A stretch of 64,000 nucleotides of DNA from a virus (IMGVR_UViG_3300037455_000543:283136-347135); one strand, 5' to 3'; counted from the first letter of the stretch, positions 1,437 to 46,348 are shown. Numbers and translations: made by a program. The notes: generated from the letters alone by a model not told the origin.

Positions 1437-1533
1437 ATCTATAATATAGTTAAATTCTGAATATTTGTAAATGAGAAATGACCGGAATATTTCATCCGGT
1501 CATCTCTTGGAGGTTAACATAGAAAACCTTTCG

Positions 1534-1851
1534 TTAAACCAGCGACATAACCAGGCTAATTATTACGACACCGACGAATACGTAGCTAAACATTCCAATG
1601 ATGCACACGATAGAGCCCCACAAATCCTTCATGTGATAGGTCTTGTCGAGCAGCCATTCCATGAGCTTCACACCGACCCAGAGGAGCAGGATGAATCCAA
1701 CAATCATAATCACCACATCCATACCAGTGAGAGTGCACACCGTTCCCGGTGTATTGTGGTTGTTCATCATATGAATCATGTTCATTTGGTTAATCATGTT
1801 TGTGGTATTCATGTTATTCATAATGACGAAATGTGTTGTATTCATATTCAT
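1534..1851 (-). CDS. Membrane protein with Met/Asn-rich N-terminus
   Basis: Start moved to the ATG after GAAGAGGTT RBS; two TM segments. Confidence 0.7.
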   Translation of the reverse strand: MNMNTTHFVIMNNMNTTNMINQMNMIHMMNNHNTPGTVCTLTGMDVVIMIVGFILLLWVGVKLMEWLLDKTYHMKDLWGSIVCIIGMFSYVFVGVVIISLVMSLV

Positions 1852-1954
1852 AACCTCTTCGTTATGTTTATAATATAGATAATTCTGGATTTCTTGTAAA
1901 TGGGAAATGACCAAGATATTTCACTCGGTCATTCTAATAAGAAACAGATATCCG

Positions 1955-2245
1955 TTAGAAATTGATTCCTCTTACGAAACCACCACCGAATCCCCATTTT
2001 CCTTTAGACACAGAATATCCCCAACCATAGTGGAAACCCACATTACCATTATTTTCAACATGGATTTTACCGTCAGGACTCTTTTGACATTCAGAATCAA
2101 TTCCAATAAAACATACTGCAATTGTTAATGCAAATATTGCACCAATGAAAAAGTTCACAGATGAATCATTCTTTCGATTGATATAGCACAGAACCAAAAG
2201 GATTGCGAAGATTGCAAAAGAAATTGCTCCGATGTAAAATAACAT
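1955..2245 (-). CDS. Membrane protein
   Basis: AAGGAG RBS before MLFYIG; two TM segments. Confidence 0.7.
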   Translation of the reverse strand: MLFYIGAISFAIFAILLVLCYINRKNDSSVNFFIGAIFALTIAVCFIGIDSECQKSPDGKIHVENNGNVGFHYGWGYSVSKGKWGFGGGFVRGINF

Positions 2246-2255
2246 ATTAATCTCC

Positions 2256-2426
2256 TTAGGATTTATAAGTAAAAGATTCACTTTCCCCGATAGGTTCACC
2301 GTCAAGAACGAGTTGAATCGTCACAGTCTCGTAATTCGGGTCGGAACCATAACCATAACTAGTGTCCGTATCGACACGAATTGACAAATGTTCTTTTAAA
2401 TATGCTTTTAACTGTTCTTCATTCAT
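2256..2426 (-). CDS. Hypothetical protein, leaderless
   Basis: ATG 6 nt after -10. Confidence 0.6.
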   Translation of the reverse strand: MNEEQLKAYLKEHLSIRVDTDTSYGYGSDPNYETVTIQLVLDGEPIGESESFTYKS

Positions 2427-2499
2427 GTTCATAATATAGAAAAAACCAGAGTTTTCGTAAACCCTGGTTATATAATATTCTTGTTCAATCAACGATACG

Positions 2500-2946
2500 T
2501 TATTTAGTTATTTCGAATGCGACCATATATGGTTCTTTGAAATTCATCAGATCTGGACGGAACTTGATTGAAGGATTGTCGAACATTGCATCATAGAGAT
2601 AATCAGCTCTGTTCTTGAACGCAGTACGGACATTGAACTTGAATTCCTTGAAACCCATCTTCTTGAGTGTTTCGGTCATTTCAGGATAAATCCTGTCAGC
2701 CGAGCTGAGATAAGCAGATACGTCAATGACATTCTCATTCGGGTCATAACATTCTGTTGCTATTTCCCTGAAATCATCATCATATTCTTCGCAGATTTCA
2801 TCCCACAAATCATCACCTTCTGGTGTGTTTCTGATTTCATTCCAATGATTGAACTTTTGAAGAAAACCTTGGAGGAGTTCACTACCTTTAGATTCCACGA
2901 TATATCCTTTTTTATTTAAGATTGTTAATGCTTCGTCAAGTTTCAT
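2500..2946 (-). CDS. Late protein, possibly virion-internal
   Basis: TATAAATA upstream; N-terminal LDEALTILNKKGYIVES motif. Confidence 0.7.
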   Translation of the reverse strand: MKLDEALTILNKKGYIVESKGSELLQGFLQKFNHWNEIRNTPEGDDLWDEICEEYDDDFREIATECYDPNENVIDVSAYLSSADRIYPEMTETLKKMGFKEFKFNVRTAFKNRADYLYDAMFDNPSIKFRPDLMNFKEPYMVAFEITK

Positions 2947-3046
2947 AGATTCTCCTATTTTTATTATTTATAAGAGAATCTGGTATTTAATATAGTAAAT
3001 TCTGGGATTTTTGTAAATGGTTTTACGGTAAGAAATTTAACCTCTA

Positions 3047-3274
3047 TTAAAAATTAACCGAAGGTTTATACGACCAGAGTTTGACATCGAGGACATGACA
3101 ATCTCTCGTGACGTCATTCCATTCTCTGTCGACATAACAGAAATGAGGAATATCGCATGCGATGTAGAAATAACCACAGCGAGTCTTTCCGTTCTTCATA
3201 ACGAACATAACGTCGCTCTTATCGGTAGGAAGTTTTTCTTGAGGAGTAAACCATTCAATCGTTGTCGTAATCAT
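3047..3274 (-). CDS. Hypothetical protein (DUF551-like W..P.EKLP motif)
   Basis: EWFTPQEKLP...VKLWSYKP. Confidence 0.6.
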   Translation of the reverse strand: MITTTIEWFTPQEKLPTDKSDVMFVMKNGKTRCGYFYIACDIPHFCYVDREWNDVTRDCHVLDVKLWSYKPSVNF

Positions 3275-4318: not shown

Positions 4319-4334
4319 GGAGGTTAACATGAAA
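4319..4334 (-). promoter_or_regulatory. 3'-UTR anti-RBS/anti-AUG element (UUUCAUGUUAACCUCC)
   Basis: Identical 16-mer also at 6845, 17971 and 21466, always between a stop codon and a terminator. Confidence 0.65.
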
Positions 4335-4347: not shown

Positions 4348-4596
4348 TTAGACAGCAGATTCCAGACACTTGTAACGGACATCATCTTCATTCTCCGAAG
4401 CGAACTCCATTACATAATCCAATGCTTCTTTATCTTCAGATTTGAAGGAGATAACATTGTCATTCTTTTCGAACGAAACCTTTTCAATGTCACCGTCATG
4501 TTCATGATGGATATTAAGACGTTGGAAATCCTCGAGGTCACTGAGACTGTCAAACGCAGCGTCTTCTGTGCAGTAAATAATCTTTCCCTTGAGCAT
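4348..4596 (-). CDS. Hypothetical acidic protein
   Basis: GAGG RBS, operonic with 4606..4890. Confidence 0.7.
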   Translation of the reverse strand: MLKGKIIYCTEDAAFDSLSDLEDFQRLNIHHEHDGDIEKVSFEKNDNVISFKSEDKEALDYVMEFASENEDDVRYKCLESAV

Positions 4597-5540: not shown

Positions 5541-5697
5541 TAAATTAAATATAGAATTATTTTTAAAAACTTTTTCTTTTTAATTTAATTCTGAAAATTT
5601 CGTCCAGTCAATATCCGTAGAGCCAGTTAGCCACTTATTACAGGTAAAAAGAAAGTGGACCGGAGTAGGTCCACAGTCCATGTCTCAGAGACTCAGA

Positions 5698-6749: not shown

Positions 6750-6861
6750 TGTTTAATCTCCTTTGTTTTACATCTATAATATAGTTAAATTCTGAATATC
6801 TGTAAATAAGAAATGACCGGAATATTTCATCCGGTCATCTCGTAGGAGGTTAACATGAAAC

Positions 6862-7674
6862 TTATTTAATCATATCCAGGAACTGTTCAACCGTAATCAT
6901 TTCCGTTCCCTGTTTACGGGCTTTGTTTGCCTTACCCGATGTAGAGTTCAGGTCTTGCATAACTAAGTAAGTCAATCCCTTCTTCACGTCGTCGAAGTTT
7001 TCACCGCCGTTTTCTTTAACCATTTTCTGTAAATCACTTCTCTTGTATTCCATTGCTCCAGTGAAACAGAAACTCTTTCCGGTCAATTTACCTTCAACCT
7101 TTTCTTCTTCGGTGATTTCGACATACTTCAACGTTTCCCGCATGTCTTCAATATTCTTGACAATACCTGAATGAAGTTTTTCCGAAAGGATTTCACCAAT
7201 ACCGTCACAGACGAACCGATAAGGGTTTTCACCGACGAAACCTTCGAGGTTTTCAATCTTCTTGGCAGAAATAATCTTGACAATTTGTTTTTCACCGATA
7301 CCGGAAATATTATAACCAGCAATCAACTTTGCAAGAGTCATTTTCTTATGAGAATTGATTTCCTTCTTAATGTTTTCCCAGTTCTTACCGAGAATCGGAC
7401 TTAACACAGTATCACCCTTCTCCTGATCTTTATAGAGTCCAGATACCGTCATGAACAATCCGTTGTCCTGAATGGTCTGAATAGTCGTAAGACCGAGTTC
7501 CTTAATCTTCTGAACGTCCGTCCACTTCAGGATAGTTCCACTAAGCTTGGAAGGACAACAGTTATTCGTACAGAAGATACGGGTATGGTTTTCATTGATG
7601 TCAAGTTCTGAACCACAAGCAGGACAGACAGTAGGAAGATTCCAGTTATGAAGTTTGATAATGTTCTCAATCAT
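6862..7674 (-). CDS. ligA: NAD-dependent DNA ligase, C-terminal subunit (Zn finger, HhH, BRCT)
   Basis: PTVCPACGS...CTNNCC; ISGIGE and DGIGE HhH motifs; LTGKSFCFTG BRCT. Confidence 0.9.
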   Translation of the reverse strand: MIENIIKLHNWNLPTVCPACGSELDINENHTRIFCTNNCCPSKLSGTILKWTDVQKIKELGLTTIQTIQDNGLFMTVSGLYKDQEKGDTVLSPILGKNWENIKKEINSHKKMTLAKLIAGYNISGIGEKQIVKIISAKKIENLEGFVGENPYRFVCDGIGEILSEKLHSGIVKNIEDMRETLKYVEITEEEKVEGKLTGKSFCFTGAMEYKRSDLQKMVKENGGENFDDVKKGLTYLVMQDLNSTSGKANKARKQGTEMITVEQFLDMIK

Positions 7675-9611: not shown

Positions 9612-12443
9612 CTAACAGAAGGAGGATGCAATTCTCAAGTATCTCTGGAAAGGTGTCTCCGGCTGTTTAGTTTCCAGCAGTGTGGCCATCTTTCTTCGAT
9701 CCATAGATTCAACCATTTCTTCAGGTGAAGTACTGTATTCGTTGTCGGTATTGAAGAATACGGTCTGGTTTCTCTTCATCACGGAAGCGATACCGTAACT
9801 GTTGAACGGAAGGTTCATCTTCAGAGGACCAGATAATACTACCCTACCTTCATCGTCATAAACCGTAGACGTGTTACCGTTCTTTACCAAGACATAATCG
9901 TTACCGAATGTGTTTACGATTTTACCTGGAATATTCTTTACCTTATTGGTCTTAACCCACCATTTATATTCATTATTATCAGTCTTAATCGTCATGATGT
10001 TCGTACCGTCATCACGATTTTCAAACCCAGTGATTTTTTCACCATGTACATCATCCGGTTTAACAACAGCATTACCGTTTTCATCATAGATTGCTTCAGC
10101 GGTACAGATATAGGTTTTCTTCTTGCCGTCTATGTACACAGCTTTAGCGTCAAGAATCTTATTAGGAATTTCCTTAACACCTTTTGCTGAGATATACCAT
10201 GCCTTAACAAATTCCCCTTGCGGATTGGTTCTATTGACCTTGGCAAAACCTCTGTATTCATATACATAGTAAGAATCACGGTCAGATATGTCATTAAGAA
10301 GAACATTACCATTAGCATCGTATGCAAAAACACCAGTACCGTTTCTGTACCTTCCAGCCATTACAACATTCTTGTCTTCAATGTACGCATCCTTAATACC
10401 AAAGGTATATACGTTTCCACCGTTAGCTTCTATATCAGGAATGGTATCATTGGCAGTATGGACTTTACCATCCGGTGTTACCCATTTTTTGGATGAACCG
10501 ATGATATAAGGAGATTCGAGATTTATGTTTGGTAATACGACAGTTTCACGTGTGGACTTAACATAAGCAGTATGGGTATACCAGTTATATGCAAAATTCG
10601 CATTAACCCTTACGTCAGACATATCATTGGTGTATACTTCATTGAATCCGTCAATCTCATTTCGATTAACCTGCGAAACAGTACCTGTCTTTATGTCAAG
10701 CTTATAAATAACATCTCTGTTTCTGAAGTACGGGAAAGAACCTTTACCAAACGGCAATAACTTAGCGTTGACAAGCTTCTTGGTTATGTACTTGTTTAAC
10801 TTCATGTCATAAACAGAAGATTGGTCATCGCCCGTGATGATAACGAGATAACGGTATTCACCAGACTTATCTTTGTGGACACGAGCACTAGCAAATAATC
10901 CTCTGCTTATAGGAGTAGGAAGAATCGCTTTACCTACATGATAAAACTGTACAGTATGATTAGTCGTTGCATAGAAGAATTCAGGGCAGTTATTTCCTTC
11001 TTCATTATACAATGCTTCAATGTTATTCACCCATTGAGTAAACAGTAATCTCTTATTGATGATATAATTTCTTTTACCAGTATGTCTATCCTTGACAACG
11101 TGATGCGTGATATTATTATTCACATCCCATGGGTATATGTAATATACGCCACGAAGATCCTGGTAATTATCATCGTCGAGTCTCTTATAAAGCTTGCTGA
11201 CATCGAAGTTACAACCGTTGACGTTATTTGCTTGTTCCCCGCCTTCATGGAACTTGAACTTCTGGCAGAATTCATCCTTGGTACAACCTACAATGTCGCA
11301 GAACTTATCGATTCTAGCGTTACAGAAATTATCTGCGAAACCATCCTTATGAGCAACATCGTGATTCTCTTGACCGAAATGGTTATATCTACTACAGAAA
11401 CCAGCAACCATTTCATCTGTCGGTTGGGGATCGCTTGAAAGTCTTACACAGATTAAGCTTGTACCCCACTTATCGTATGGTTCTGTTGCTCTGTTACCGT
11501 CTCTGGTACGGTCAAGCTTTTCGAATCCTTCCTTGAATACATAGTATGCAATCTGGGATCTACCACCCATACCGTACATGTTCCAGTGTCTTGGGTCAGT
11601 ATATGTGATACACCATTGGGCGCCGTTGTGTACCTGATCCCATGGGCAGTTAGGATATGTCCACCAGCACCAGGTCTTAGACTGAGCATGGGTATTGATT
11701 CGTACTGCCCAATAACCTTTGTTACCGATACGGAACTTGCCGTCTGTATAAGGTACATGTCCACCCCAATCCGCGTTTGCAAAAGGATCTTCTTCTACTT
11801 CAACGTGTACTTCCTCTGGATTTTGCGCTGCGTTCCATGCATTAAGCCATTCTCTCTCTGCATCAGTAACTTCTTCCCCAGCATCTATCCTACCCTGAAT
11901 GTCAGCTGCCCTATTCGCATTCGCGTTTCTTGCGTCATCCAACATTCTGTTCTTGCCAACGAACTTATCGCCGTAACCGTTGAGGTATATGTCCATCGCT
12001 TCGTCGTAGAACGGCATTACCACGCTGCTAAGCTTATAGAAGTTCCAACCATTCATATTGGTTGACAACCACTGTACCTGTGGAAGTCCATCCCACATCT
12101 GCTTCTGACGATACATGGTGGCCGCGAAATAAACCTTCTTCAGCGAAGCTTTCATACGGGTATTCGCAGGTCTATCAGTACCGTCGTTACATTCGGTCTT
12201 AAGAATTCTTACCAATCCTTCAACGAGGTTCTTGGTCCAGGAAAGCTTGTGAAGTACATCGATAGGGTGACAGTACTCGCTAACCGCCTTGTCCAGGTAT
12301 TCTTCAGCATCCTGCTTCTTCTTCGCATCTGTTACCTCAGTGTCATTGAACATCGGGAAACATCTTTCGTAATTATCAATAAGGAACTGTATAGCCCTTT
12401 TTCTACTTGCAACATCAGCTGCTTCATTTAATATCATACTCAT
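9612..12443 (-). CDS. Large late protein (943 aa), paralogue of 12507..15332
   Basis: TATAAATA-N4-ATG; central WCIT motif; beta-rich C-terminal half. Confidence 0.85.
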   Translation of the reverse strand: MSMILNEAADVASRKRAIQFLIDNYERCFPMFNDTEVTDAKKKQDAEEYLDKAVSEYCHPIDVLHKLSWTKNLVEGLVRILKTECNDGTDRPANTRMKASLKKVYFAATMYRQKQMWDGLPQVQWLSTNMNGWNFYKLSSVVMPFYDEAMDIYLNGYGDKFVGKNRMLDDARNANANRAADIQGRIDAGEEVTDAEREWLNAWNAAQNPEEVHVEVEEDPFANADWGGHVPYTDGKFRIGNKGYWAVRINTHAQSKTWCWWTYPNCPWDQVHNGAQWCITYTDPRHWNMYGMGGRSQIAYYVFKEGFEKLDRTRDGNRATEPYDKWGTSLICVRLSSDPQPTDEMVAGFCSRYNHFGQENHDVAHKDGFADNFCNARIDKFCDIVGCTKDEFCQKFKFHEGGEQANNVNGCNFDVSKLYKRLDDDNYQDLRGVYYIYPWDVNNNITHHVVKDRHTGKRNYIINKRLLFTQWVNNIEALYNEEGNNCPEFFYATTNHTVQFYHVGKAILPTPISRGLFASARVHKDKSGEYRYLVIITGDDQSSVYDMKLNKYITKKLVNAKLLPFGKGSFPYFRNRDVIYKLDIKTGTVSQVNRNEIDGFNEVYTNDMSDVRVNANFAYNWYTHTAYVKSTRETVVLPNINLESPYIIGSSKKWVTPDGKVHTANDTIPDIEANGGNVYTFGIKDAYIEDKNVVMAGRYRNGTGVFAYDANGNVLLNDISDRDSYYVYEYRGFAKVNRTNPQGEFVKAWYISAKGVKEIPNKILDAKAVYIDGKKKTYICTAEAIYDENGNAVVKPDDVHGEKITGFENRDDGTNIMTIKTDNNEYKWWVKTNKVKNIPGKIVNTFGNDYVLVKNGNTSTVYDDEGRVVLSGPLKMNLPFNSYGIASVMKRNQTVFFNTDNEYSTSPEEMVESMDRRKMATLLETKQPETPFQRYLRIASSFC

Positions 12444-12506
12444 ATACTATTTATAACGTTAAAGACTGCCCCTGTAAGGACAGTCTTCTATAAAATAATC
12501 AGAATT

Positions 12507-15332: not shown

Positions 15333-15396
15333 ACAATATTTATAACGAAAAAGACTGCCTCATAAGAGACAGTCTTCAGCAGAATAGGAAATTCTG

Positions 15397-15904: not shown

Positions 15905-15985
15905 TTTAACCTCTTGCTTATGTCTATAATATAGAAAAAGGACTGACTTCTGTCAATCCTTCTCTAGGAGATTTATGGTAACAGT

Positions 15986-16474
15986 CTACTTCAGAAGCTT
16001 GATGAGCTGGAGGAGAGCGCCGGTCTTCTTCTTGTTGAGTTCAAAACCGAGGTCCTTGGCAAAGGATTCAACCTTGTCAAAGATTTCGTCGAAGTTCGGG
16101 TCAATGAACGGACGAGTCTGCTGTTCCTTCACATGGTCAGTTTCACCAAGGACAATCTTCTTGATTTCGTGACCAATCTTGAACATTGCTTCACGGTGTT
16201 CATGGACCTTCTTCAGAATCTGCTTACGTTCTTCGATTTCGTGACGGAGAGACATCTTCTTGGATTCGAACGTGTTCATGAGCTGTTCCAGCTTCAGAGT
16301 GCTCTTACCGTCGACACGGAAAGCGACAGATGCCTTCTTATGCTTCTTGTTGAGTTCACGCTTGAGATGCTTCCAGCAACGCTTGTGGTCGTGGTAACGT
16401 TCAATCAGGTTGTCCAGGATGGTGATTTCGGACTGCGTGAGAGTGGTTTGGATATCGATGAGCTTCTTCTTCAT
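15986..16474 (-). CDS. Basic coiled-coil hypothetical protein
   Basis: RBS and promoter. Confidence 0.8.
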   Translation of the reverse strand: MKKKLIDIQTTLTQSEITILDNLIERYHDHKRCWKHLKRELNKKHKKASVAFRVDGKSTLKLEQLMNTFESKKMSLRHEIEERKQILKKVHEHREAMFKIGHEIKKIVLGETDHVKEQQTRPFIDPNFDEIFDKVESFAKDLGFELNKKKTGALLQLIKLLK

Positions 16475-17325: not shown

Positions 17326-17447
17326 ATAACCTCCATTGTTATACCTATAATATAGATAATTCTGAACTTTTTGTAAAGAAAAAAGACTGGAATATTTTAT
17401 CCAGTCAACGAAGATAACAATGGACAAAAGGAAAAATAGTCAGTCGG

Positions 17448-17801
17448 CTACTTTCCTTCAGTGAACAGTTTATACTGGTCAAGACAAACGGTTTCGATGA
17501 CATCAATCGTTTCGTTGATCTTGTTTTCCAGAGTGAACGGTGAATCATCGAACAGATTTCCGAAACTGTGCCAGTAGCTTGCTCTTGTGTTATAACGATC
17601 TCCGTCCATTGTAGTCATCACACAGAAGATCATGTCGTCGATATGCTTATAAATCGACAACTTATAACCCTTGTTTTCCTTGTCCCACAGTTCGACAGAA
17701 CCGTACTTCTCTTTAATGAGCAGTTTGCAACGGAAGACGAAATCGCCACTGTTAAAGTTCAGTTTTACGGTATTGCCGTTAATTTCGATTTTATATTTCA
17801 C
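17448..17801 (-). CDS. Hypothetical protein
   Basis: GTG start, AAAGGAG RBS; leader nearly identical to that of 23475..23969. Confidence 0.7.
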   Translation of the reverse strand: MKYKIEINGNTVKLNFNSGDFVFRCKLLIKEKYGSVELWDKENKGYKLSIYKHIDDMIFCVMTTMDGDRYNTRASYWHSFGNLFDDSPFTLENKINETIDVIETVCLDQYKLFTEGK

Positions 17802-17991
17802 GTGTTAATCTCCTTTCGATTATGATTATAATATAGTAAATTTCATATGTATTGTCAATACGAAAAAATCAGAATTATTTCATTAGTCATCCGGCGAGGC
17901 CATCGAGAACTGCGCTTAATATAATAAACTTAAAAGAAACCTGCCGAGGGTTAACTCGACAGGTTCAACAGGAGGTTAACATGAAAATCCT

Positions 17992-18978
17992 TTACGGAAC
18001 ATACAGAATTGTGGGATTGTCCTTATGAACATCACACATCTTCATCCAGAACTGATTCTTCAGGCAATAACCGTACCAGTAGAAATCAATCATGTGAAGA
18101 TCCCAATCACTGAGCTTATTCATCTTGAAAGAAATCTTGTTCTTATCCTTCTTAATAGTTTCATGTTCAGGAAGGAAAGATTCGAAATCCTTTGCCTTGT
18201 CCAGATACACATCCGTAAGTTCGAATGTCGTATACTTATTTTCAGGGTCAGTGAAAACTCTTGGAGTAGGTAACGTGATTCCGTTATCCTTACAGAAGTT
18301 ATTCCACTTTTCCGTCATGGTTTGCATATTGAACGGCTTGGAGATGATATGCTTACCATTCTTCGTCGGGATGATAGGAGTTTCATCCATAACACCCTTA
18401 ATAGTTCTTTCGGTAGCAAGTTCAAGACTTACTTCTTCACTAAGTTCAAGCTGATCACAGTAACCCTTTAATTTTTCTGCTTCAGACTTGATATGTCGTA
18501 CATACGGTTCACATTCGAACATCATCCTTAACATATCTTCCTGATACGGAACATATTCCTTATCGAGGTCAACAATCCATGTCTTATCATTTCCAGCAGA
18601 ACATACTTGTCCAGCAGCGGATGCGACGAGATGATAAGGAGAGTTAAACGTTTCACCAGACTTACATTGCTGGGCAATATGCATCATCATTTCCAGTGCG
18701 ATACTCTTGAATGTTCTCTTGTTGAGTCTGATGTAAGCTCGGACATTGAACATATCACACATCTTGATGATATCTTCCTTCACCTTATCGAAATAGTCGA
18801 GCGAGGGGATGAGATAATCCTTGATGGAACGTGAATGCATGTTGCCGTGATAACGCGGGTCAGCCACACCGTTCGTATGAGGGTCATCACTCTGACGCCT
18901 CAGTAATTGCACATAATAGCAATCGCCTTCGTCTTCGAATTTAAGTAAGCTTCTGATTTGGTCAAAATTATTTACCAT
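17992..18978 (-). CDS. AEP-superfamily primase/polymerase-like protein
   Basis: WIVDLD (hhhDhD), PTKNGKH (sxGxH) and C-terminal DVHKD motifs. Confidence 0.55.
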   Translation of the reverse strand: MVNNFDQIRSLLKFEDEGDCYYVQLLRRQSDDPHTNGVADPRYHGNMHSRSIKDYLIPSLDYFDKVKEDIIKMCDMFNVRAYIRLNKRTFKSIALEMMMHIAQQCKSGETFNSPYHLVASAAGQVCSAGNDKTWIVDLDKEYVPYQEDMLRMMFECEPYVRHIKSEAEKLKGYCDQLELSEEVSLELATERTIKGVMDETPIIPTKNGKHIISKPFNMQTMTEKWNNFCKDNGITLPTPRVFTDPENKYTTFELTDVYLDKAKDFESFLPEHETIKKDKNKISFKMNKLSDWDLHMIDFYWYGYCLKNQFWMKMCDVHKDNPTILYVP

Positions 18979-20005: not shown

Positions 20006-20080
20006 ATGTTAATCTCCTGTTTGTTTATAATATAGAAAAATCCAGAGTTTTCGTAAACCCTGGATATAATAATGTTCTGT

Positions 20081-20305
20081 TTAGCCAAATGTATAAGACA
20101 CAGTTTTCGTCATCTTCATCACAGTAAGTGTCTGTCCGGGAAAATTCTTTTCGAGATATTCTTTCCGTTCGTTCGCAGACTTTTCGTTATCCCACTTCAT
20201 TGCCCATTCCGGTGAGTTACAATAGACGATATGTTTCTTGCCAGCGAAGGACCAGTTCTGAACTGCTTTCCCTGTTCTGGTATTCAGTATGATGTATTTT
20301 TCCAT
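20081..20305 (-). CDS. Hypothetical protein (TxDxxxAxxF-like family)
   Basis: Operonic ORF. Confidence 0.7.
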   Translation of the reverse strand: MEKYIILNTRTGKAVQNWSFAGKKHIVYCNSPEWAMKWDNEKSANERKEYLEKNFPGQTLTVMKMTKTVSYTFG

Positions 20306-20933: not shown

Positions 20934-21380
20934 CTACTCTTCGAGTTCGAACGAGTATTGTCCCGCGTAACATGGACCTGTGACCTTCTCTTCCAATCCG
21001 TTTTCTTTTTCGAAACATTGTACGATGTCAGAGAGATGGGTACAATCCAAAACACCAACGAACTTACGGAGAACCTTGATTTCGTCCCACGTAATCGGAT
21101 CGGCTTCTTCCAACCAACCTTGTACGTCTTCTACCGACATTTCATAGTATTCATGATTGTCATCATCAACGGTGACTTCGGGATCACATTCGTTGATTCG
21201 GTTGAGCAATTCTTCCTTTTGCTTTTCCGTAACGATAATCTTTTCCTTGCACCATGGACCGGAACCGCATTCGAAATCTACACAATAGAACTTCTTACTT
21301 GCGAGTTCATCTACGGTAAGTTTGCGACGGTCGCGGTTAATGTCAACTGCTCTTCTTAACTTAGGCATTATGTACTCCAT
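20934..21380 (-). CDS. Hypothetical protein
   Basis: Early promoter upstream. Confidence 0.75.
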   Translation of the reverse strand: MEYIMPKLRRAVDINRDRRKLTVDELASKKFYCVDFECGSGPWCKEKIIVTEKQKEELLNRINECDPEVTVDDDNHEYYEMSVEDVQGWLEEADPITWDEIKVLRKFVGVLDCTHLSDIVQCFEKENGLEEKVTGPCYAGQYSFELEE

Positions 21381-21486
21381 TTGTTAATCGTTATGTTCAT
21401 AATATAGAAAATTCTATTGTTTTTGTAATAAAAAACGACCAGAACTTTTGCTCTAGTCGTCTTTCGGAGGTTAACATGAAACTCTT

Positions 21487-21573
21487 TTAACAGTAGTATG
21501 CCAGAGTCACACAGAATCCAATCGCAACTGCGAATTCAATAATGTCTTCTGTAATCATTAAGAACTTTTTCAT
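21487..21573 (-). CDS. Small hydrophobic peptide (28 aa)
   Basis: MKKFLMITEDIIEFAVAIGFCVTLAYYC; AAGGAG RBS. Confidence 0.55.
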   Translation of the reverse strand: MKKFLMITEDIIEFAVAIGFCVTLAYYC

Positions 21574-21583
21574 TTTCTACTCC

Positions 21584-21781
21584 TTATCCGACAAATCCCG
21601 CAATTCCACCAAACACGAACGTAATTCCCTTCGCTTCGGTCTTAACGATGTCGGTAACGAAATAGACCGCGGAAGTAATCGTGTTACAGAGATGTTTGAC
21701 ACAGTTATAATCACCAACAATCATTCCGATGACGAAGAAGATTGCGAGAACGATGAGTGTGATAGTCAGGACTTTGGACAT
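21584..21781 (-). CDS. Small membrane protein
   Basis: GGAGG RBS and promoter. Confidence 0.7.
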   Translation of the reverse strand: MSKVLTITLIVLAIFFVIGMIVGDYNCVKHLCNTITSAVYFVTDIVKTEAKGITFVFGGIAGFVG

Positions 21782-21850
21782 GGTGTAACCTCCGTTGTTT
21801 GATTATAATATAGTTAATCTAGGACCATTTGTAAGTGGGAAAACTCAGAA

Positions 21851-22135: not shown

Positions 22136-22214
22136 ATTTAACTCTCCTGTTTGTTTATAATATAGAAAAATCCAGAGTTTTCGTAAACCCTGGATATTCT
22201 GGATTTTCTTTCAG

Positions 22215-23462: not shown

Positions 23463-23474
23463 AGAGACTGGAGG

Positions 23475-23969
23475 TTAATCCCATTCCTTACAGAGTTTCT
23501 TGTTTTCAAGATCCTTGAAGATTCCCTTCCAGTTGTTGTAACAATCGTCGAAGTATTCTTCCGGGTACATACCGGTGGACCAGGAGGAAGGATCTTCATC
23601 GTGAGAGGGTTCGTCTTCACCACAAATCACACACAATACCATCCTGACAACTTCTCGAATGTCCGGAGATACATAATCCATATCATCCCACTTCGTAGTT
23701 TCACCGTCACTGGTCTGTTCCAGATGATAAACGAGGTGGTAGAACGGATTCTCGTCCTTGTCGTCATGTTTCCAACAGATGGTGAGATGTCCTTCCGTAC
23801 ATTCCGGTTTGTCTTCACAGTAAGTGTGAATCTTGATGATGTCGAAGTTCTTTTCGTAAGTCAACTTTACGTCGACAGACGGGAAAGACCGAGCGATGTA
23901 GACTTGATTACCGAAGTCTTTGTTGATTCGTCCGATGATTTCAAAGATGTTGATGTTTTCTTTTTTCAT
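23475..23969 (-). CDS. Hypothetical protein
   Basis: RBS and promoter. Confidence 0.75.
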   Translation of the reverse strand: MKKENINIFEIIGRINKDFGNQVYIARSFPSVDVKLTYEKNFDIIKIHTYCEDKPECTEGHLTICWKHDDKDENPFYHLVYHLEQTSDGETTKWDDMDYVSPDIREVVRMVLCVICGEDEPSHDEDPSSWSTGMYPEEYFDDCYNNWKGIFKDLENKKLCKEWD

Positions 23970-31198: not shown

Positions 31199-31281
31199 AA
31201 TAACCTCGTTGATTATATTTATAATATAGAAAAATCCAGAGTTTTCGTAAACCCTGGATATTCTGATTTTTCTTTCAGTTA

Positions 31282-32300: not shown

Positions 32301-32641
32301 TGTTTATTTCCCCTTTGATTAGTCGACAGACTTCTTTGCAGTTACAAACTTTCTTTTCTTTCGCCAGCACTTGACACAGCAAGCATAACCCATACGAGGC
32401 CAGATCAGACCAAGCTGGTTTGCATACTTGATGTTGTTTTTGCATTCGGTGCAGGGAAGATTCATTTTCATAAGTAACCTCATTGTTATACTTATAATAT
32501 AGTATTTTTATTGGACTTTGTAAGTAATAATTCTGAATTTTCTTACACTCAGTTTTTACTTGTAGAGCCAGCTAGCCACATATGCAGGGTAAAAGAAAAC
32601 GGTCAGCCGGAGCCGACCGTCTTTGGAGGTTAACTAGGACA

Positions 32642-33418
32642 CTAAGCCTTGATAGTTCCCTTGACTTCGATGTCGCCAACCTTGGTGGTGAATTCGTTAT
32701 CAGCGTGAATCTTCAGCACCTTCATGTTGTAGAGCAGTTCGTTGAGCTTCTTGTAATCGCCAACCTGCTTACCGGTCATAGCTGTCTTCAGATTCTTTGC
32801 TGCGTTCGTAGTCTTCGAGGAAAGTCCCTTCAAGTTGACCTTGATTTCGGTATTTGCTTCCACGACAGTGCGGTTAGTCACCGGCTTGTTGTAATAACCG
32901 TCCGGACGAAGACCGAGATAGTTCAGTCGAATCTGTTCCGGGGACATAGCCGGCTTGGGCTGTGCAGTCTTGAACAGGCTTGCCACGAACTTGTTGACCG
33001 ATGCGTTGAAGACTTCCTTGACATCCACAGCGGTCTTGTCAGTCAACGGGAACTGACCGAGATTGACGATGTTGTTCTTGACCGGGACAGTCAGTCGACC
33101 CTGTTCCCACTTATCTTTCGTCATCATCAGGAACTGTTGCTTGAGTTCGCCGTTCTTGACGATAGTAATCGTCCTCATCTGCTTGCAACGGTGTTCCGTG
33201 CCGTTTGCTTCAATCATCTTGCCCGGAATGTCGAACTTGATGTTCAGGTTTCCGGTAGATGCATATTCAACCGAATGAATCGGCCAGCATTCGGTATCGG
33301 CAACGAAACGAGTTCCGTTATCCGCGACTTCGGTGATATTGGAATTGTCGTAGTTGTCGAACGGCTTGCATGCGACGTTAGAGTTTTTGATGGCGGTGAG
33401 AGCTTCGAAAATTGTCAT
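32642..33418 (-). CDS. Hypothetical protein
   Basis: Start at MTIFE after GAGGTTAA. Confidence 0.8.
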   Translation of the reverse strand: MTIFEALTAIKNSNVACKPFDNYDNSNITEVADNGTRFVADTECWPIHSVEYASTGNLNIKFDIPGKMIEANGTEHRCKQMRTITIVKNGELKQQFLMMTKDKWEQGRLTVPVKNNIVNLGQFPLTDKTAVDVKEVFNASVNKFVASLFKTAQPKPAMSPEQIRLNYLGLRPDGYYNKPVTNRTVVEANTEIKVNLKGLSSKTTNAAKNLKTAMTGKQVGDYKKLNELLYNMKVLKIHADNEFTTKVGDIEVKGTIKA

Positions 33419-33648
33419 AGTGTTTAACCTCTTGTTGATGTGTATAATATAGTAAATCATAGGCCTGTTGTCAATGGTTCTATTCTGAACATTTTTCTTC
33501 AGTCATCCAGGCAGTCTATACATGTAAGGCCAGTTAGCTACATGGTTTACATGACTTACTCCGGGTATATGAAAAAAACCAGTCTCTCGGGGTAGAGAAA
33601 CTGGTTTACCTGGTCGAAGGGGGTAAAGGAGATAAAGTGACCAGGGTT

Positions 33649-33957
33649 TTAGATTTCTTCTTTTTCAGCCTTCTGACGCTTGAGCAAAGCCTGTCGCTGA
33701 CGGTAATGCTGCAAACCGAGATCCATGTTCTTCTTGCTGAAACAGCCAGCCCAGAACGGTGCAGACTTCACCATCTTCTTGAGCATGTCCGGTGTGATAG
33801 AACCGGCAATACCGAAACGAGAGTTGAAGTATTCGGCACTGATACCGTGACCGACGTTCTTTTCGGCTTCGGCAACGACCATTCGGTAAAGAGCGTCATT
33901 GCTACCGGTGAACTTTTGAACTTTCTTGGAACAGAGAATTTGACGAAGACTAGACAT
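33649..33957 (-). CDS. Hypothetical basic protein
   Basis: RBS, promoter, terminator. Confidence 0.75.
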   Translation of the reverse strand: MSSLRQILCSKKVQKFTGSNDALYRMVVAEAEKNVGHGISAEYFNSRFGIAGSITPDMLKKMVKSAPFWAGCFSKKNMDLGLQHYRQRQALLKRQKAEKEEI

Positions 33958-34138
33958 AAATAACCTCTTTTGTTGATGTCTTGTTTTATTGTATACTACA
34001 ATATAGTAAAATGTGACTCACCTGTCAATGCGTTCTTTATTGAATAATTTATACAGTTAACCTTAATAGAACCGGTAGATTAAAAGAAAACCGGATGTCC
34101 AAATGACACCCGGTCTTCAGGAGGTTACTTATGGGAAT

Positions 34139-34519
34139 TTACTTTGACATCTTTTCGTTTACAGCTTGCCTGACCTCATGTACCCTGGCTTTTACGGTTG
34201 ATTTCGATTTTTCAGTTTGGGCATTGATTGAATCGACTGCTTTATCTTTCTGTTCTTTCAGACCTTTCACAACTGAATCCGCCTTATTGAGAACGGCTTC
34301 TGTCGCTGAATCCTTGACTTCTGTCGCCTTTGCTGAGACGTCATTCATGACTTCTGTCGTTCCGTCCTTGATTGCATCCGCTACGGAGTCGACGACATTG
34401 TGGGTTGCAGAAACGAAAGCTTCAGTGTTCTTGGGATTATTCGAGAATCCCTGATATGCGAAATAACCGCCGATTGCGATTGCTGCGAGAAGTGCGATGG
34501 TTGCGAGGAACTTTAACAT
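34139..34519 (-). CDS. Membrane-anchored helical protein
   Basis: N-terminal TM, Ala/Lys-rich helix. Confidence 0.75.
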   Translation of the reverse strand: MLKFLATIALLAAIAIGGYFAYQGFSNNPKNTEAFVSATHNVVDSVADAIKDGTTEVMNDVSAKATEVKDSATEAVLNKADSVVKGLKEQKDKAVDSINAQTEKSKSTVKARVHEVRQAVNEKMSK

Positions 34520-35572: not shown

Positions 35573-35701
35573 AGTGATTTACTCCTTGAGTTTGTTTTGT
35601 TTGTTGATGTTTTGTTTTGTTGATGTGCTTAATATAGTTAATTTCGTAAGCTTTGTCAATGCGTTTGTGAAGCATTATTTTTTCGCAGTCAACCTTGAGG
35701 T

Positions 35702-35869
35702 TTAGTCTTCAGTTTCGTCTTCAGACACCCATTCAGTTGTACGACACATATCTTCAACTGCATATTCACTCATCTCAGACAAGCATTCGCGAGCAACGGT
35801 TTCCCAATCGAGTTCACCGCTTTCACACTTAGCAAGCAGAGCATTCGTGTATTTTCTTACGTTAACCAT
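35702..35869 (-). CDS. Small phage protein (55 aa)
   Basis: Manual ORF MVNVRKYTNALL...ECLSEMSEYAVEDM. Confidence 0.65.
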   Translation of the reverse strand: MVNVRKYTNALLAKCESGELDWETVARECLSEMSEYAVEDMCRTTEWVSEDETED

Positions 35870-36787: not shown

Positions 36788-37046
36788 TGAGTATCTCCAT
36801 TAGTTAAGGTTTATACTATATTATCGTATTTGGAGATAAAAATGTAAAGTATTATAATATATCTGTCAATATCATTATACCTAGAATAAGGAATACGACA
36901 AACATTGCAGCTACAATACTACCTGCTGACGTTCCATAAATGAATGCTTCTGCATTTCCAGCATTCTGGGCAGCTGTGATCACCATCGCGGTCTGTAAGT
37001 CATGCATAATCGCCTCCTTGTTTTATTTATCTATTGAGGGTCCTCT

Positions 37047-40249: not shown

Positions 40250-42130
40250 TTAAAAACGATAACCTATACCTAAACCCATCACATCGCTTTTATATTCTTT
40301 CAATATTGTAGTTGATTTAATCAAATTTGTTTCATACATAAAATATGCTATCCAATGCTCGTTAAAATTAAACCCAAATTTATAATCAATTACATAATTA
40401 TTGAATTCAATATTATCTAAATCCTGTATAAACAATTGATTATAATTTATATTACCAAAGAATCCTAAAATATTTAATTCTAAACCAATTCCAAGTTTAA
40501 AATATATACTAGTAATCGACTTATCACCGTCATATGAAAAACTTTCTAAACTTGTATAATCTACACCAAAAATGGATAACGAGGTATTAACAAAAGGCGT
40601 AATACTTATATCTTCATTTCCGATTTTAGAACCAATGATATAATTTAAAGACATTACTAATGGATATTGAGTATTATCTTTTAAGTCATTCGCGTTATTA
40701 CCGTAAAATTCAAAAGAAATCCAATGATTTAACGAAAAATATTGACTTAAATTCAACGGTTCATCATATTCCCAGTCCGTCGAATAATCATTAACCCAAT
40801 GACTTCCAGATGGTTTAGATACACATTGATTTAAACTTTCATCGTATCTGCTAAACCAACAAGAAACTTTCTCTTCACAATTACCATAACGTTCTACATA
40901 ACCTTCTTCACATTCCCAATGTCCTTCATATATCCAATTAGAATGTTCAGGCTTAATTACACATGTTCCAGTTTCATAATTAAATTGAAATGGTTCTTCA
41001 CAAATAAAACAATTGCCATTGCCATCTTCATGATATTTTTCATCACATGCCCATGTTGCACCATCAGAATAAACCCAATGAGAATGTTCAGGTTTTGTAA
41101 AACATTCATTATTTTCTTCATCATAATGAGCACAAGTCTTTTTTATTTCACAACCATAACTTCCTTTAACATAACCATCTTCACAATAATATTCATCATT
41201 ACTCCAATATGCATGTTCTGGTGGATCTATACAAGTATTTGTAAATTCATCATATTTCTGATTAATTAAGCAAATTGATTTTCTAATACAACTATTATTA
41301 GATATAATATAACCATTATCACAAGACCAATCTACACTATTCTCAGCATTCCAATGAGAGTATGGAGGTTTAGAAATACAAGTATTAGATGGTTCATAAT
41401 ATCTACTTAAACTATCACATTGTACAATTTCTTCACATATATCACCTTGATTTACATAGCCTTTATCACATTCCCAATCAAATTTATTCTTAAGCCAATG
41501 AGAATGTTCAGGTCGTTCATAACAACGATTTTCATTTTTATTATACTTATCTGTTTCATTACATTGTACAATTTCTTCGCAAATATCGCCTTGGTTTACA
41601 TAACCATTATTACAAGTATAACCAATTTTTTTATTACGATGTGCATTTTCGGGTAAAATGGAACAATTAAATTCGTCTATTGCGTATTCATCATTATCGC
41701 AAATATAAGGTTTTACACAAGTATATGCTTCATTCTCAATTTTATATACCATTCCTGCTGGACAAGTAACATAAATCTTATTATTTTCATTAGCATTTTC
41801 AGTCGGAATAATATAATCTACGAATATTTTATTACCCATACCAACATATCGATTAATATCATAATCAGTATATCGTTTATCTGAATATGCATCTATAGGG
41901 CCCAATGAACCCACCCAAAAATTTGAGCTTGTTCTAACATGTATATCATTAACATCACATGCATAATTATCAACTAATCCATGTGTTAAATCTACACGAG
42001 TTTTACAAATAATTTGTTTTGACTTCGCCGGTTTAATAACATTAACCTTATCAAAGGATTGTGTATATGTCACAATACCGGCATTTACGAAACATATCAT
42101 ACACAAAATTACCAAAAGAATTTTTTTCAT
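40250..42130 (-). CDS. Secreted Cys-rich repeat protein with C-terminal beta-barrel-like domain
   Basis: Signal peptide; C..(K/R)PEHSHW....W.C..GY repeats; ends GLGIGYRF. Confidence 0.75.
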   Translation of the reverse strand: MKKILLVILCMICFVNAGIVTYTQSFDKVNVIKPAKSKQIICKTRVDLTHGLVDNYACDVNDIHVRTSSNFWVGSLGPIDAYSDKRYTDYDINRYVGMGNKIFVDYIIPTENANENNKIYVTCPAGMVYKIENEAYTCVKPYICDNDEYAIDEFNCSILPENAHRNKKIGYTCNNGYVNQGDICEEIVQCNETDKYNKNENRCYERPEHSHWLKNKFDWECDKGYVNQGDICEEIVQCDSLSRYYEPSNTCISKPPYSHWNAENSVDWSCDNGYIISNNSCIRKSICLINQKYDEFTNTCIDPPEHAYWSNDEYYCEDGYVKGSYGCEIKKTCAHYDEENNECFTKPEHSHWVYSDGATWACDEKYHEDGNGNCFICEEPFQFNYETGTCVIKPEHSNWIYEGHWECEEGYVERYGNCEEKVSCWFSRYDESLNQCVSKPSGSHWVNDYSTDWEYDEPLNLSQYFSLNHWISFEFYGNNANDLKDNTQYPLVMSLNYIIGSKIGNEDISITPFVNTSLSIFGVDYTSLESFSYDGDKSITSIYFKLGIGLELNILGFFGNINYNQLFIQDLDNIEFNNYVIDYKFGFNFNEHWIAYFMYETNLIKSTTILKEYKSDVMGLGIGYRF

Positions 42131-43914: not shown

Positions 43915-44499
43915 CTAAATTTCCCACTTAGTGACTTTCCACTTGGTCCAGAGCTGAATAACACTCGGTGTTTCAAATTCCTTGTTATTCTTGATGGACT
44001 TTTCGGTAATAACCGGGAAGTTTTCAGGCGGATTATCCTTATCCTTCGGGTTATAATTAGGCGGATATGCTTTTCTTCCCTTAACAGTCCAACCTTCATT
44101 GGTGAAAGATGCAGTCATGTCTTCTTTGATGAAATCCACAACTTCCTTTTCGTCCTTGCAAATAACCGGAGCAAACACAGCAAGACCTTCACCGGGTTCA
44201 TCGTAATTTGCGATTGTAACGATCCAACAAGTTTTCTTCGGCTTAGATACACGGCCGGAACCACACGGCTGGAGATTGTCAGGCAGAGAACTTCCAAGGT
44301 CATTGAAACCAAAGTTGACGAAATCTTCTTCATCTTCCGCTTCGAAGACGAAATGGAATTCCTTGCGATCCTTGACTGGTTCTACCTTAACAAAAGTATA
44401 AGTTCCAGTATAATCCTTTGCTAATCCACGGAGGACAGCATCTCGGACAGTGTTAATCGAGGGTTTTCTTCCTTCGTATTCAATATCTACATAAACCAT
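43915..44499 (-). CDS. Hypothetical protein
   Basis: RBS and promoter. Confidence 0.75.
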   Translation of the reverse strand: MVYVDIEYEGRKPSINTVRDAVLRGLAKDYTGTYTFVKVEPVKDRKEFHFVFEAEDEEDFVNFGFNDLGSSLPDNLQPCGSGRVSKPKKTCWIVTIANYDEPGEGLAVFAPVICKDEKEVVDFIKEDMTASFTNEGWTVKGRKAYPPNYNPKDKDNPPENFPVITEKSIKNNKEFETPSVIQLWTKWKVTKWEI

Positions 44500-44585
44500 T
44501 ATGTAACTCCTTTTGATTGATATGTATAATATAGAAAAAACGTGGCTTTTCGTAAGCCACGCTCTTGTTGTGTTTTTATTTCAGT

Positions 44586-44798
44586 TTACTCTTGTTCCCA
44601 GTGTGAATCAATGTGGACATTGTTCTTACCTTCAGGATCAATGACGGAGAAGAAATAACCGTGTTCCATTCCGTCAATAGCAACAAGTTCATTCGCCTGT
44701 TCCTGACAATAATCCTGGAGATTGTCCATCAATTCATTGAAACCAGTATTTTCCGCAACGTCATCAGTTGTTATTTCTATAACCAGTTTACGTTTCAT
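44586..44798 (-). CDS. Hypothetical protein
   Basis: RBS. Confidence 0.7.
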   Translation of the reverse strand: MKRKLVIEITTDDVAENTGFNELMDNLQDYCQEQANELVAIDGMEHGYFFSVIDPEGKNNVHIDSHWEQE

Positions 44799-44808
44799 TG
44801 TTTACTCC

Positions 44809-45213
44809 TTATTTAATCTTGCTTGCCAAGTATTCCGCAGCTTCCACAATTGAATCGAACGGTTTTTCATGTTCTCCACCGGCTGAAACTTGGAATTTTC
44901 CAGGTCCACGGAAGTCGTAAGCAATATACCCACGGAACTTACCTTTTTCATCGGCATTGAATAATCGAAGAACATCATACAATGAACCAGAGACCGGACA
45001 ACAATTCTTACCGGAAAGTTCGAGTTCACCGATCTTCGGGTTCTTCTTGACCATGATCTTCAACGGTTTGATGAACTTCTTAGTCCGGTTATAAAGTGCT
45101 GTACTGCTACAGAACCAGTCATACCAGATGTCTTCCGCAAGGTCCCGACGTTTTTGTTCATCGTTCTTTGCTTCGTTCCATTCTTTAAGAAATTGATTTA
45201 CTTGCTTTCCCAT
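44809..45213 (-). CDS. Hypothetical phage protein
   Basis: WYDWFC and KNCCPVSGSLYD motifs; RBS. Confidence 0.75.
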   Translation of the reverse strand: MGKQVNQFLKEWNEAKNDEQKRRDLAEDIWYDWFCSSTALYNRTKKFIKPLKIMVKKNPKIGELELSGKNCCPVSGSLYDVLRLFNADEKGKFRGYIAYDFRGPGKFQVSAGGEHEKPFDSIVEAAEYLASKIK

Positions 45214-45236
45214 GTGTTTATCTCCTTGTGTTAATT

Positions 45237-45560
45237 CTAATCCGTCAACTTGGCAAATACCTTTTCAGTAATAGCGGAAATTGCTTTCTTTACATCCATT
45301 CCAGTACAGTCGACATACACACCACCCATGTGATCCGACCAAGGATCACCATCTGAATCAAAACCGACCCAAATCTCTTCAATATCCATTTGGTGTTTGT
45401 GATCTGGAACAGGATGAATATAGATTTCCTTACGGTTGATACAACTATGTGTTCCCGGATTCTTGAAAGGATAAGTCAAAATCAACGTGTCACCACTGAT
45501 TTTATATTCACTGTGACCAATGCTGCGAGCCAAATCCGTTAAAAACTGTTCCATCTTCAT
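45237..45560 (-). CDS. Hypothetical protein
   Basis: RBS and promoter. Confidence 0.7.
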   Translation of the reverse strand: MKMEQFLTDLARSIGHSEYKISGDTLILTYPFKNPGTHSCINRKEIYIHPVPDHKHQMDIEEIWVGFDSDGDPWSDHMGGVYVDCTGMDVKKAISAITEKVFAKLTD

Positions 45561-45646
45561 AGATAATCTCCTGTTGATGCTTATAATATAGTAAAATATG
45601 GCATTATTGTAAAGGAAAGGCACTGGATATTTCTATCCAGTCAACC

Positions 45647-46219
45647 TTAAGTGTTAGAACCGTCCTGACCACAGCGAAGAATTAACTGTTCAGGAGTGTA
45701 GTACTTTTTATACATACTTTCACACTTATGTTTGAGTACGTCACTGTTCTTGAGTTGTTCCAGCAAAGACGGAAGTTCTGCAAGGAATTCTTCCACGGTT
45801 TCATACTTCTTGTTGTTGATTCGACAGGTAAGACTCGGCCAGGTCTGTTCGAATTCACCATTGTCATTCGTAATACCCCAACCCCAGTGTGTCTTCGGAT
45901 CATCCGTACGTTTCGGTTCGTAGATGTCAACCACAGAGTATTCAACACCGTCAATTACGGTATCAAGCGGAGCAACCCAAGCACAACCCATATAGATGGA
46001 CGGGTACATTGCGGGGGATTTCGAGTTGAACTTTTCCCAGTTCTTGATAACTCTTGCCCAATTGTCACGTTTTTCGATGTTATACTGAGCTGCATTCTTT
46101 CGAGCTGCCTTCTTGCTCCAGAATGCATGGACCTTCTTGAAATAATCCGGCTTGTTGCGATAGAGAGGGAGGAATCCGGCGGATTCGATAAGATGGTTCA
46201 AACTCTTGATTGTAATCAT
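45647..46219 (-). CDS. Hypothetical protein
   Basis: RBS and promoter. Confidence 0.75.
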   Translation of the reverse strand: MITIKSLNHLIESAGFLPLYRNKPDYFKKVHAFWSKKAARKNAAQYNIEKRDNWARVIKNWEKFNSKSPAMYPSIYMGCAWVAPLDTVIDGVEYSVVDIYEPKRTDDPKTHWGWGITNDNGEFEQTWPSLTCRINNKKYETVEEFLAELPSLLEQLKNSDVLKHKCESMYKKYYTPEQLILRCGQDGSNT

Positions 46220-46348
46220 GTTAATCTCCTGTTGATGCCTATAATATAGTAAAAAGTGGCATGTCTGTATATAAAAAATGACTGGATATTCCTATCCAGT
46301 CATCCTTTTTCACCACACAACAAGGAGATACCATTATCCATTTTTTAA

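Follow-up and report, generated by a model that had tools for sequence, protein, structure and literature searches.

Why should the messenger RNAs (mRNAs) of a phage carry, in the few bases between stop codon and terminator, the complement of a ribosome-binding site (RBS)? The question is raised by a 64,000-nucleotide stretch of viral DNA (IMGVR_UViG_3300037455_000543:283136-347135, here called the window), which comprises bases 283136-347135 of the 424,163-bp genome, with direct terminal repeats, of an uncultured rumen phage known from metagenome sequence. A preliminary description of the window had noticed a recurrent element of 3′ untranslated regions (3′ UTRs), antisense to an RBS plus start codon, and had suggested a distributed layer that silences early phage or host mRNAs in cis or in trans. 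We consider it somewhat probable that these elements are sense-strand anti-RBS modules of early transcription units, which are predicted to pair in cis with the 5′ UTR and Shine-Dalgarno (SD) sequence of their own mRNA, closing it and masking its RBS.

The minus strand holds nearly all genes between 1 and ~54.5 kb. These genes are arranged as very many short transcription units of one build: a sigma-A-type promoter, a 5′ UTR of ~20 nucleotides (nt) that holds a stereotyped SD, between one and three small genes, and an intrinsic terminator. The promoter reads TTTACA/TTGACA-N17-TATATT in minus-strand sense and is present in at least 45 copies. Because matches to this pattern concentrate at genome positions 280-335 kb, the window contains essentially the entire early region. 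The SDs in the 5′ UTRs of early units read AAGAGGTTAA or AAGGAGATTAA (types GAGGTTAA or GGAGAT), and the usual SD of the phage is GAGGTTA. In many units, the loop of the terminator hairpin holds the -35 box of the next promoter. Three relatives (G001, G002 and G003) were found through a neighbour gene of 328 amino acids (aa), at ~72% amino-acid identity, and the early region is built in the same way in all of them.

A recurrent anti-RBS element between stop codon and terminator

One form of the element is a 16-mer that reads TTTCATGTTAACCTCC in mRNA sense (minus strand) and GGAGGTTAACATGAAA on the plus strand. Its exact copies, at plus-strand positions 4319, 6845, 17971 and 21466, lie between stop codon and terminator beside three hairpin types, just as had been described; each is found 1-13 nt past a stop codon and 4-6 nt ahead of the terminator hairpin (Table 1). 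A search of the 424,163-bp genome at up to one mismatch returned these four copies only, all in a single orientation. With up to two mismatches allowed, GGAGGTTAACATGAAA has 6 matches against 0.10 expected, a number that no shuffle attained.

The variant sites listed in the preliminary description fared unevenly. Those at 1509, 32625, 34120, 33625, 15966 and 17426 proved to be 3′ UTR elements, whereas the sequence at ~36229 lies inside a translationally coupled open reading frame (ORF), the TTG start of which overlaps the preceding stop codon, and the sequence at 46322 ends a non-coding RNA (ncRNA) unit. Three more elements were found at 23470-23477, 35693-35704 and 36832-36844. In general, the elements lie 1-25 nt past stop codons, ahead of hairpins. 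At gathering score, Rfam returned only tRNAs and cow-rumen-2 in the window, and nothing at the elements.

A comparison with shuffled controls, which had been proposed as a check on the motif, bears out its enrichment. Of the 64 stop-proximal segments, 8 contain a strict pattern (CAT or CAC, 3-10 nt, strong anti-SD). Dinucleotide shuffles yielded 0.64 ± 0.78 (maximum 4 in 300); the corresponding figures are 0.8 for coding sequence and 0 for both the reverse and the reverse-complement controls. Since four of the eight are the same 16-mer, they are not independent and represent ~5 independent families. The excess recurs in the relatives G003 (5 vs 0.26) and G001 (2 vs 0.2), but was not found in G002 (1 vs 0.66). 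A genome-wide test of association between motif and terminators, made with an in-house terminator detector, was too lenient (9/36 for a control motif) and was discarded.

The more general core of the elements is TAACCTC(C), the complement of the usual SD. Over the four phages, TAACCTC is found 24 times in 9.9 kb of stop-proximal 3′ UTR (2.4 per kb), whereas 146 kb of coding sequence hold 7 copies (0.05 per kb) and the remaining 43 kb of intergenic DNA hold 9. The core is thus enriched ~50-fold, in a single orientation and at a single position. GAGGTTA itself occurs 72 times in intergenic DNA outside the stop-proximal 3′ UTRs of the four phages, which agrees with its being the usual SD.

The element that recurs in G001 and G002 reads TAACCTCC and then TGATGAT(GA); it either lacks CAT or has one that stands only 2 nt away from the SD complement. 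What the elements generally share is therefore complementarity to the SD and its flanks, not to SD and start codon: the first half of the original characterisation is upheld by enrichment and conservation, while the complement of the start codon is not a general feature. For the TGATGATGA tail that the element has in the relatives, a reading as stops in three frames gave way to a better explanation, namely complementarity to the 5′ UTR sequence ATCA(A)CAGGAG.

Predicted pairing with the RBS of the same unit

Pairing was scored as RNAduplex energies, each element being compared with every RBS region in its genome. For 7 of 32 elements, the RBS belonging to the first gene of the same unit was among the top 5% of these regions, where 1.6 were expected (p = 9e-4; Wilcoxon p = 0.02). 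When the background was restricted to RBS regions that are promoter-proximal and SD-led, the own RBS was in the top 5% for 5 of 28 (p = 0.012). Among individual units, element 32625-32641 pairs with the RBS region and first codons of its own gene at -16.3 kcal/mol, and element 35693-35704 with the RBS region GATGAGGTTAA of its own gene at -14.8 kcal/mol (top 2-3%). Copy 6845 adjoins a leaderless gene; its best partner is the RBS of gene 8344 (-14.4 kcal/mol), which is the first SD-led gene upstream of this copy, with no terminator between them.

Folding of predicted full-length mRNAs points in the same direction. The 5′ and 3′ ends close upon each other in both the minimum-free-energy (MFE) and the centroid structure of mRNAs 21803-21425 and 33441-32580 (862 nt), and in the centroid structure of mRNA 1868-1468, with the closing helix directly adjoining the terminator hairpin. 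For copy 21466, the own-RBS sequence CGGAGGUUA pairs with UAACCUCCG in MFE and centroid folds alike.

Homologous genes offer a further line of evidence, in the form of matched differences at the two ends of the mRNA. The clearest case is a 281-aa gene family. A metagenome scan for it gave 80 loci with 33 distinct 5′/3′ pairs, and three clades of this family carry an element. Clade A combines the 5′ RBS flank CAATCGAGGT with the 3′ element ACCTCGATTG, clade B combines ATTGCGAGGT with ACCTCGCAA, and clade G combines ATCAACAGGAG with CTCCTGATGAT. Duplex energies are -16 to -21 kcal/mol for own-clade pairs, against cross-clade means of -6 to -11. In a fourth member of the family, GAGGTTAACA pairs with its own element, and clades with weak AAGGAA-type SDs are without an element. 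Within clade B (10 distinct sequences), TTAACCTCGCAAA is invariant while the bases from stop codon to element are variable. The family of gene 33418 has kept GTTAACCTC in three members with GAGGTTAA-type SDs, and the element has decayed in one member with the SD GGAGTTAAA. Finally, copy 21466 and a copy in G003 (copy c) both follow orthologous 65-aa genes, so that the element is conserved at this site; here CGGAGG is matched by CCUCCG, and in G003 the own-RBS sequence UGGAGG is matched by CCUCCA in the element. These matched compensatory differences between homologues support pairing in cis.

The 16-mer has a broader reach. Its duplex energy reaches -10 kcal/mol or better with 38 of the 63 promoter-proximal RBS regions and averages -10.9, compared to -6.3 for shuffled 16-mers; on these modelled energies it is a near-universal anti-RBS.

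Conservation and exchange among relatives

In G003, a 47-kb fragment, the 16-mer occurs three times exactly and once with one mismatch, in the same setting but next to different hairpins. Copy 4319 and one of the G003 copies (copy a) terminate units whose first genes are orthologues. The G003 orthologue of gene 1845..1534 is followed by TTTTTCCATAACCTCCTGATGAT, which is related to, but not the same as, the TTTTCTATGTTAACCTCC found at this place in the present phage. Behind the orthologues of the 328-aa gene the 16-mer is missing in 3/3 relatives, each of which has its own cassette, so that this gene has four different downstream cassettes in four phages. Orthologous genes can thus be followed by different cassettes, and one gene, 21368..20934, is present here and absent in G003 beside a conserved cassette.

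More distant relatives retain only GTTAACCTC(C/G), and identity of the 16-mer may therefore reflect recent recombinational spread. We read its identity within and between the two phages as the result of selection to match a stereotyped 5′ UTR, together with spread along with recombining cassettes. Searches of the phage collection for near-identical DNA and protein gave no matches, and a composite scan of viral contigs for element plus promoter returned G003 only, together with three unrelated contigs in which the motif is a true gene start.

A second generic 3′ UTR element, TTTTTCCATAACCTCCTGATGATGA, is found after several unrelated genes in related rumen phages (L076, L078-L082, L090, G001, G002), and is homologous to the 16-mer of this phage at one orthologous site.

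A proposed mode of action

The position of the element suggests how it might act. In ~15-20% of units, the bases between stop codon and terminator carry the complement of the SD and its flanks, built on the core TAACCTC(C) and in this phage often extended to the 16-mer. In the finished transcript, the element would pair with the 5′ UTR and SD of its own mRNA, at times also with the AUG, and the helix formed beside the terminator hairpin would close the molecule. Because the element is the last part to be transcribed before the terminator, the RBS would be open during transcription and masked once the transcript is complete. Masking would largely confine translation to ribosomes loaded during transcription, and each early mRNA would yield a short burst of translation. 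Pairing may also alter mRNA decay, as precedents in Bacillus subtilis and Staphylococcus aureus suggest. More speculatively, ribosomes that terminate a few bases upstream could transiently reopen the helix.

A further role for the 16-mer is doubtful, though conceivable. Together with the terminator hairpins it might survive in abundant 3′ fragments, as a distributed anti-RBS pool that silences or titrates the starts of early phage and possibly host mRNAs, and so serves as an RNA-only timer of early shut-off beside a RegA-type repressor. A homologue of the T4 translational repressor RegA (PF01818, 78 bits) is encoded outside the window at G000:C1:236587-236898 (L116), and the stereotyped early RBS regions may also be targets of this homologue. 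A search for RegB gave no match, in this genome or in the control genomes.

Points against cis pairing, and alternative explanations

Several observations weigh against a cis-acting, RBS-masking module. Transcript ends are predicted, and gene and unit boundaries come from a simple in-house caller. With the strict background, the mean z for the own RBS is -0.42 (p ~0.07-0.08), and own-RBS specificity is clear for a subset of elements only. The covariation comes from three or four clades of one gene family and from scattered pairs. For the exact 16-mer copies, the own RBS is no better a partner than most other RBS regions, and the CATGTTAA part of the 16-mer is invariant although the spacers of the respective units differ. 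In elements 15966 and 33625, the SD type does not fit the RBS of the unit itself, and ~80% of units have no element at all. The element-like sequence at 46322, finally, ends an ncRNA unit that has no RBS. It reads ATGGTATCTCCTTGTTGTG (46316-46335, minus strand), resembles a complement of 5′ UTR and SD, and stands just ahead of the terminator of the large unit 46349-46880; it could be a piece of the ncRNA fold or a trans-acting site.

One alternative is a role in trans. In that case the element with its terminator hairpin, as whole mRNA or as a stable 3′ fragment, would silence other early phage or host mRNAs at their RBS. The broad pairing of the 16-mer is in keeping with this, as are the conservation of all 16 nt in eight copies from two phages regardless of the RBS of the unit concerned, the sequence at the end of the ncRNA unit, and the location of one variant in a hairpin loop, which is common for the seed regions of small RNAs. 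However, no RBS complementary to the 16-mer within one mismatch exists in the genome, cis pairing is kinetically advantaged, and clade-specific matching to the own RBS would not be expected of a pure trans regulator; conservation of the 16-mer loses force if it reflects recent spread. We regard action in trans as a minority possibility, most plausible for the 16-mer. Of the two modes left open by the preliminary description, cis pairing is favoured because of the own-RBS ranking, the three clade-specific matched pairs and the full-length folds that close 5′ to 3′, while silencing in trans or of the host, with no perfectly complementary RBS in the genome, is not supported. Alternatively, the inverted RBS copies could be relics of recombination among promoter-terminator cassettes, and have no function as RNA. 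The intergenic cassettes are highly repeated and swapped between relatives, and the 16-mer could travel along with them; the four cassettes behind the 328-aa gene and the gene that is present or absent beside a conserved cassette fit such an origin. It is nevertheless improbable in view of the ~50-fold enrichment of the core in one orientation and at one position, the invariance of the element amid variable 3′ UTR flanks, and the matched 5′/3′ differences of three clades, which recombination relics do not explain.

The 16-mer contains GTTAAC and CATG palindromes, and as DNA or RNA it might be bound by a termination or antitermination factor or a nuclease of phage or host. Exact conservation of 16 nt beside variable hairpins, at a fixed distance to the terminator, speaks for a protein site, and the phage does encode RNA-binding regulators such as the RegA homologue. 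Relatives, however, have other anti-RBS sequences at orthologous sites, so the common denominator is RBS complementarity and not one sequence. No candidate protein emerged, and a protein site has little likelihood. In T4, the RBSs of gene e, soc and I-TevI are sequestered by hairpins in transcripts made early by read-through. The likeness lies in a phage sequence that, from an upstream position, hides SD and AUG depending on the transcript, and by analogy the present element might pair with the RBS of the next gene only when the terminator is read through, leaving that gene to be translated from transcripts of its own promoter alone. In several units, the element and the downstream RBS do form an inverted repeat on either side of the terminator-promoter cassette (e.g. 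6845/gene 6749 and 17971/gene 17801). In T4, however, the arm pairs with the RBS of the downstream gene, an arrangement that finds no support here: over 32 elements, the downstream RBS is not preferred (mean percentile 0.54; 3/32 in the top 5%), which argues against an insulator of the gene e/soc type, and the genes downstream include several that are leaderless or that have an SD of another type. We consider such insulation very unlikely. Least credible of all is that the plus-strand sequences are RBSs that start micro-ORFs on antisense transcripts. GGAGG-N5-ATG would be usable as an RBS, and 4 of 8 copies open four-codon frames (MKLI, MKLI, MKLF, MKNF), yet the peptides are unrelated and 4-38 aa long. 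Those at the four copies in the window have 4, 4, 15 and 38 aa, in agreement with the earlier view that a peptide function is unlikely. Furthermore, copy 1509 has no ATG, the relatives have none or have it 2 nt after GGAGGTT, and the promoter pattern gave no plus-strand early promoters in the region. Base-pairing of the element with terminator loops into a local alternative structure (UUUCAU with AUGAAA) was also considered and was dropped, as the loops differ between copies.

Comparison with known systems

Pairing of an mRNA's SD with a distant anti-SD (aSD)-like sequence has been studied in B. subtilis. Located several hundred nt downstream, such a sequence was found to pair with the SD in vivo and to reduce both half-life and translation; in endogenous genes these sequences are depleted, being harmful (Gill et al. 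2025, PMC12697547). At 0.2-1 kb, the phage units fall within the distances tested there (PMC12697547). In contrast to the depletion in B. subtilis, the phage elements are strongly enriched at one defined place, which implies deliberate use.

The best model for the phage elements is S. aureus icaR, as the preliminary description had proposed. Pairing between 5′ UTR and 3′ UTR has been described for this mRNA: a pyrimidine-rich anti-SD motif in the 3′ UTR is complementary to the SD of the same mRNA, and pairing would mask the RBS (PMC3868564). The phage units likewise have an anti-SD-like motif in the 3′ UTR upstream of the terminator. However, icaR is one bacterial gene with a long 3′ UTR, whereas the phage has modules of ~8-25 nt between stop codon and terminator in many units, partly in the form of an invariant 16-mer. 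An interaction of 5′ and 3′ UTRs has also been described for the B. subtilis hbs mRNA, but there the pairing overlaps an RNase Y site and is not of the anti-SD kind, and it concerns a single gene, not an array (PMC5737220).

With regard to their setting, the elements recall the PeSL cassettes of T4-type phages, in which a stem-loop and an early promoter separate small early genes (PMC2839356, PMC4122927). Composites of a stem-loop and an early sigma-70-type promoter are found between small early genes here too, at borders of gene insertion, deletion and replacement, and the phage elements stand at the upstream edge of cassettes that mark sites of gene shuffling between relatives. A difference is that the hosts here use strong SDs and sigma-A-type promoters. 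We know of no anti-RBS component in PeSL cassettes, although no search of the two papers aimed at one was made.

Recent work has shown that long-range pairing of an anti-SD sequence with an RBS represses Gram-positive mRNAs strongly and is generally avoided by them; natural regulatory uses are known from a handful of bacterial genes only. The principle is known; the novelty would lie in its use by a virus, as an anti-RBS module that is repeated and portable and adjoins the terminator. The phage lineage seems to employ anti-SD pairing in such a portable form, which comes last in the transcript, is found again in many early units and evolves together with the 5′ UTR. A literature search aimed at phages, limited in coverage, found no description of 3′ UTR anti-RBS elements in phage early genes, and, if confirmed, this would be the first such array in a virus known to us. 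Cis pairing of this kind would be a simple means, acting through RNA only, by which early and possibly toxic proteins are translated only while their genes are being transcribed. It would also provide natural matched 5′/3′ pairs for testing how closure of an mRNA sets its translation and decay, and a compact design rule for self-limiting synthetic genes.

Coordinates of the elements

Table 1. Elements and predicted partner regions in the window
Feature	Coordinates	Strand	Setting
Exact 16-mer	4319..4334	-	13 nt past stop of gene 4596..4348; hairpin 6 nt further on
Exact 16-mer	6845..6860	-	1 nt past stop of gene 7674..6862
Exact 16-mer	17971..17986	-	5 nt past stop of 328-aa gene 18978..17992; different hairpin
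Exact 16-mer	21466..21481	-	ends unit 21781..21487
5′ UTR/RBS of gene 21781 (AACGGAGGTTACACC before ATG)	21784..21803	-	predicted partner of element 21466-21481
2-mismatch copy (TTCTATGTTAACCTCC)	1509..1524	-	after gene 1845..1534
Element TGTCCTAGTTAACCTCC	32625..32641	-	directly past stop of gene 33418..32642
5′ UTR/RBS of gene 33418 (AAGAGGTTAAACACT before ATG)	33421..33441	-	predicted partner of element 32625-32641
Variant CATAAGTAACCTCC	34120..34133	-	5 nt past stop of gene 34519..34139, ahead of terminator
Variant CACTTTATCTCCTTT	33625..33639	-	in loop of CCTGGTC/GACCAGG hairpin, past stop of gene 33957..33649
Variant CATAAATCTCCT	15966..15977	-	past stop of gene 16474..15986; type mismatched to RBS of own unit
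Element TAACCTCC	23470..23477	-	its TAA is the stop codon of gene 23969..23475
Element TAAACCTCAAGG	35693..35704	-	overlaps stop of gene 35869..35702
Weak variant TTTTTCCTTTT	17426..17436	-	past stop of gene 17801..17448
Variant CATTTTTATCTCC	36832..36844	-	past stop of gene 37007..36852; not in the preliminary description

Further features of the early region

Two of the units that end with an element, 1534-1845 and 21584-21781 (minus strand), encode very hydrophobic proteins of 103 and 65 aa, respectively. These look like membrane proteins, which would be consistent with a need to limit their translation.

Hairpins with the -35 box in the loop (for example 22140-22215, 31215-31283 and 20024-20081) can be read as a hairpin inserted into a simpler promoter, since CAGAAT-hairpin-TTTTCTATATTATA then corresponds to TTCAGAATTTAACTATATTATA; the ACTGAA that recurs after stop codons would mark the old -35 position. 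Longer intergenic regions also share a conserved block of the form GTGGCTAACTGGCTCTAC, located past the terminator and ahead of the next promoter (~5610-5650, 32560-32600 and 33520-33550; also L115). The minus-strand genes starting at 7674, 1436, 31842 and 36536 have their ATG 5-7 nt past the -10 box (e.g. CTATATTATAAACATG), without an SD, and look leaderless.

Two paralogous genes of ~940 aa (9612-12443 and 12507-15332) are preceded by GTTATAAATA (12443-12470 and 15332-15360, minus strand; also L007, ~7010-7035). This sequence resembles the T4 late promoter TATAAATA, and hardly any sequence separates it from the gene starts; the two are apparently late-type genes lying within the early region. 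A 626-aa ORF without a PHROG match occupies 40250-42130 (minus strand), where the sequence has a G+C content of 28% and contains internal repeats of ~140 nt.

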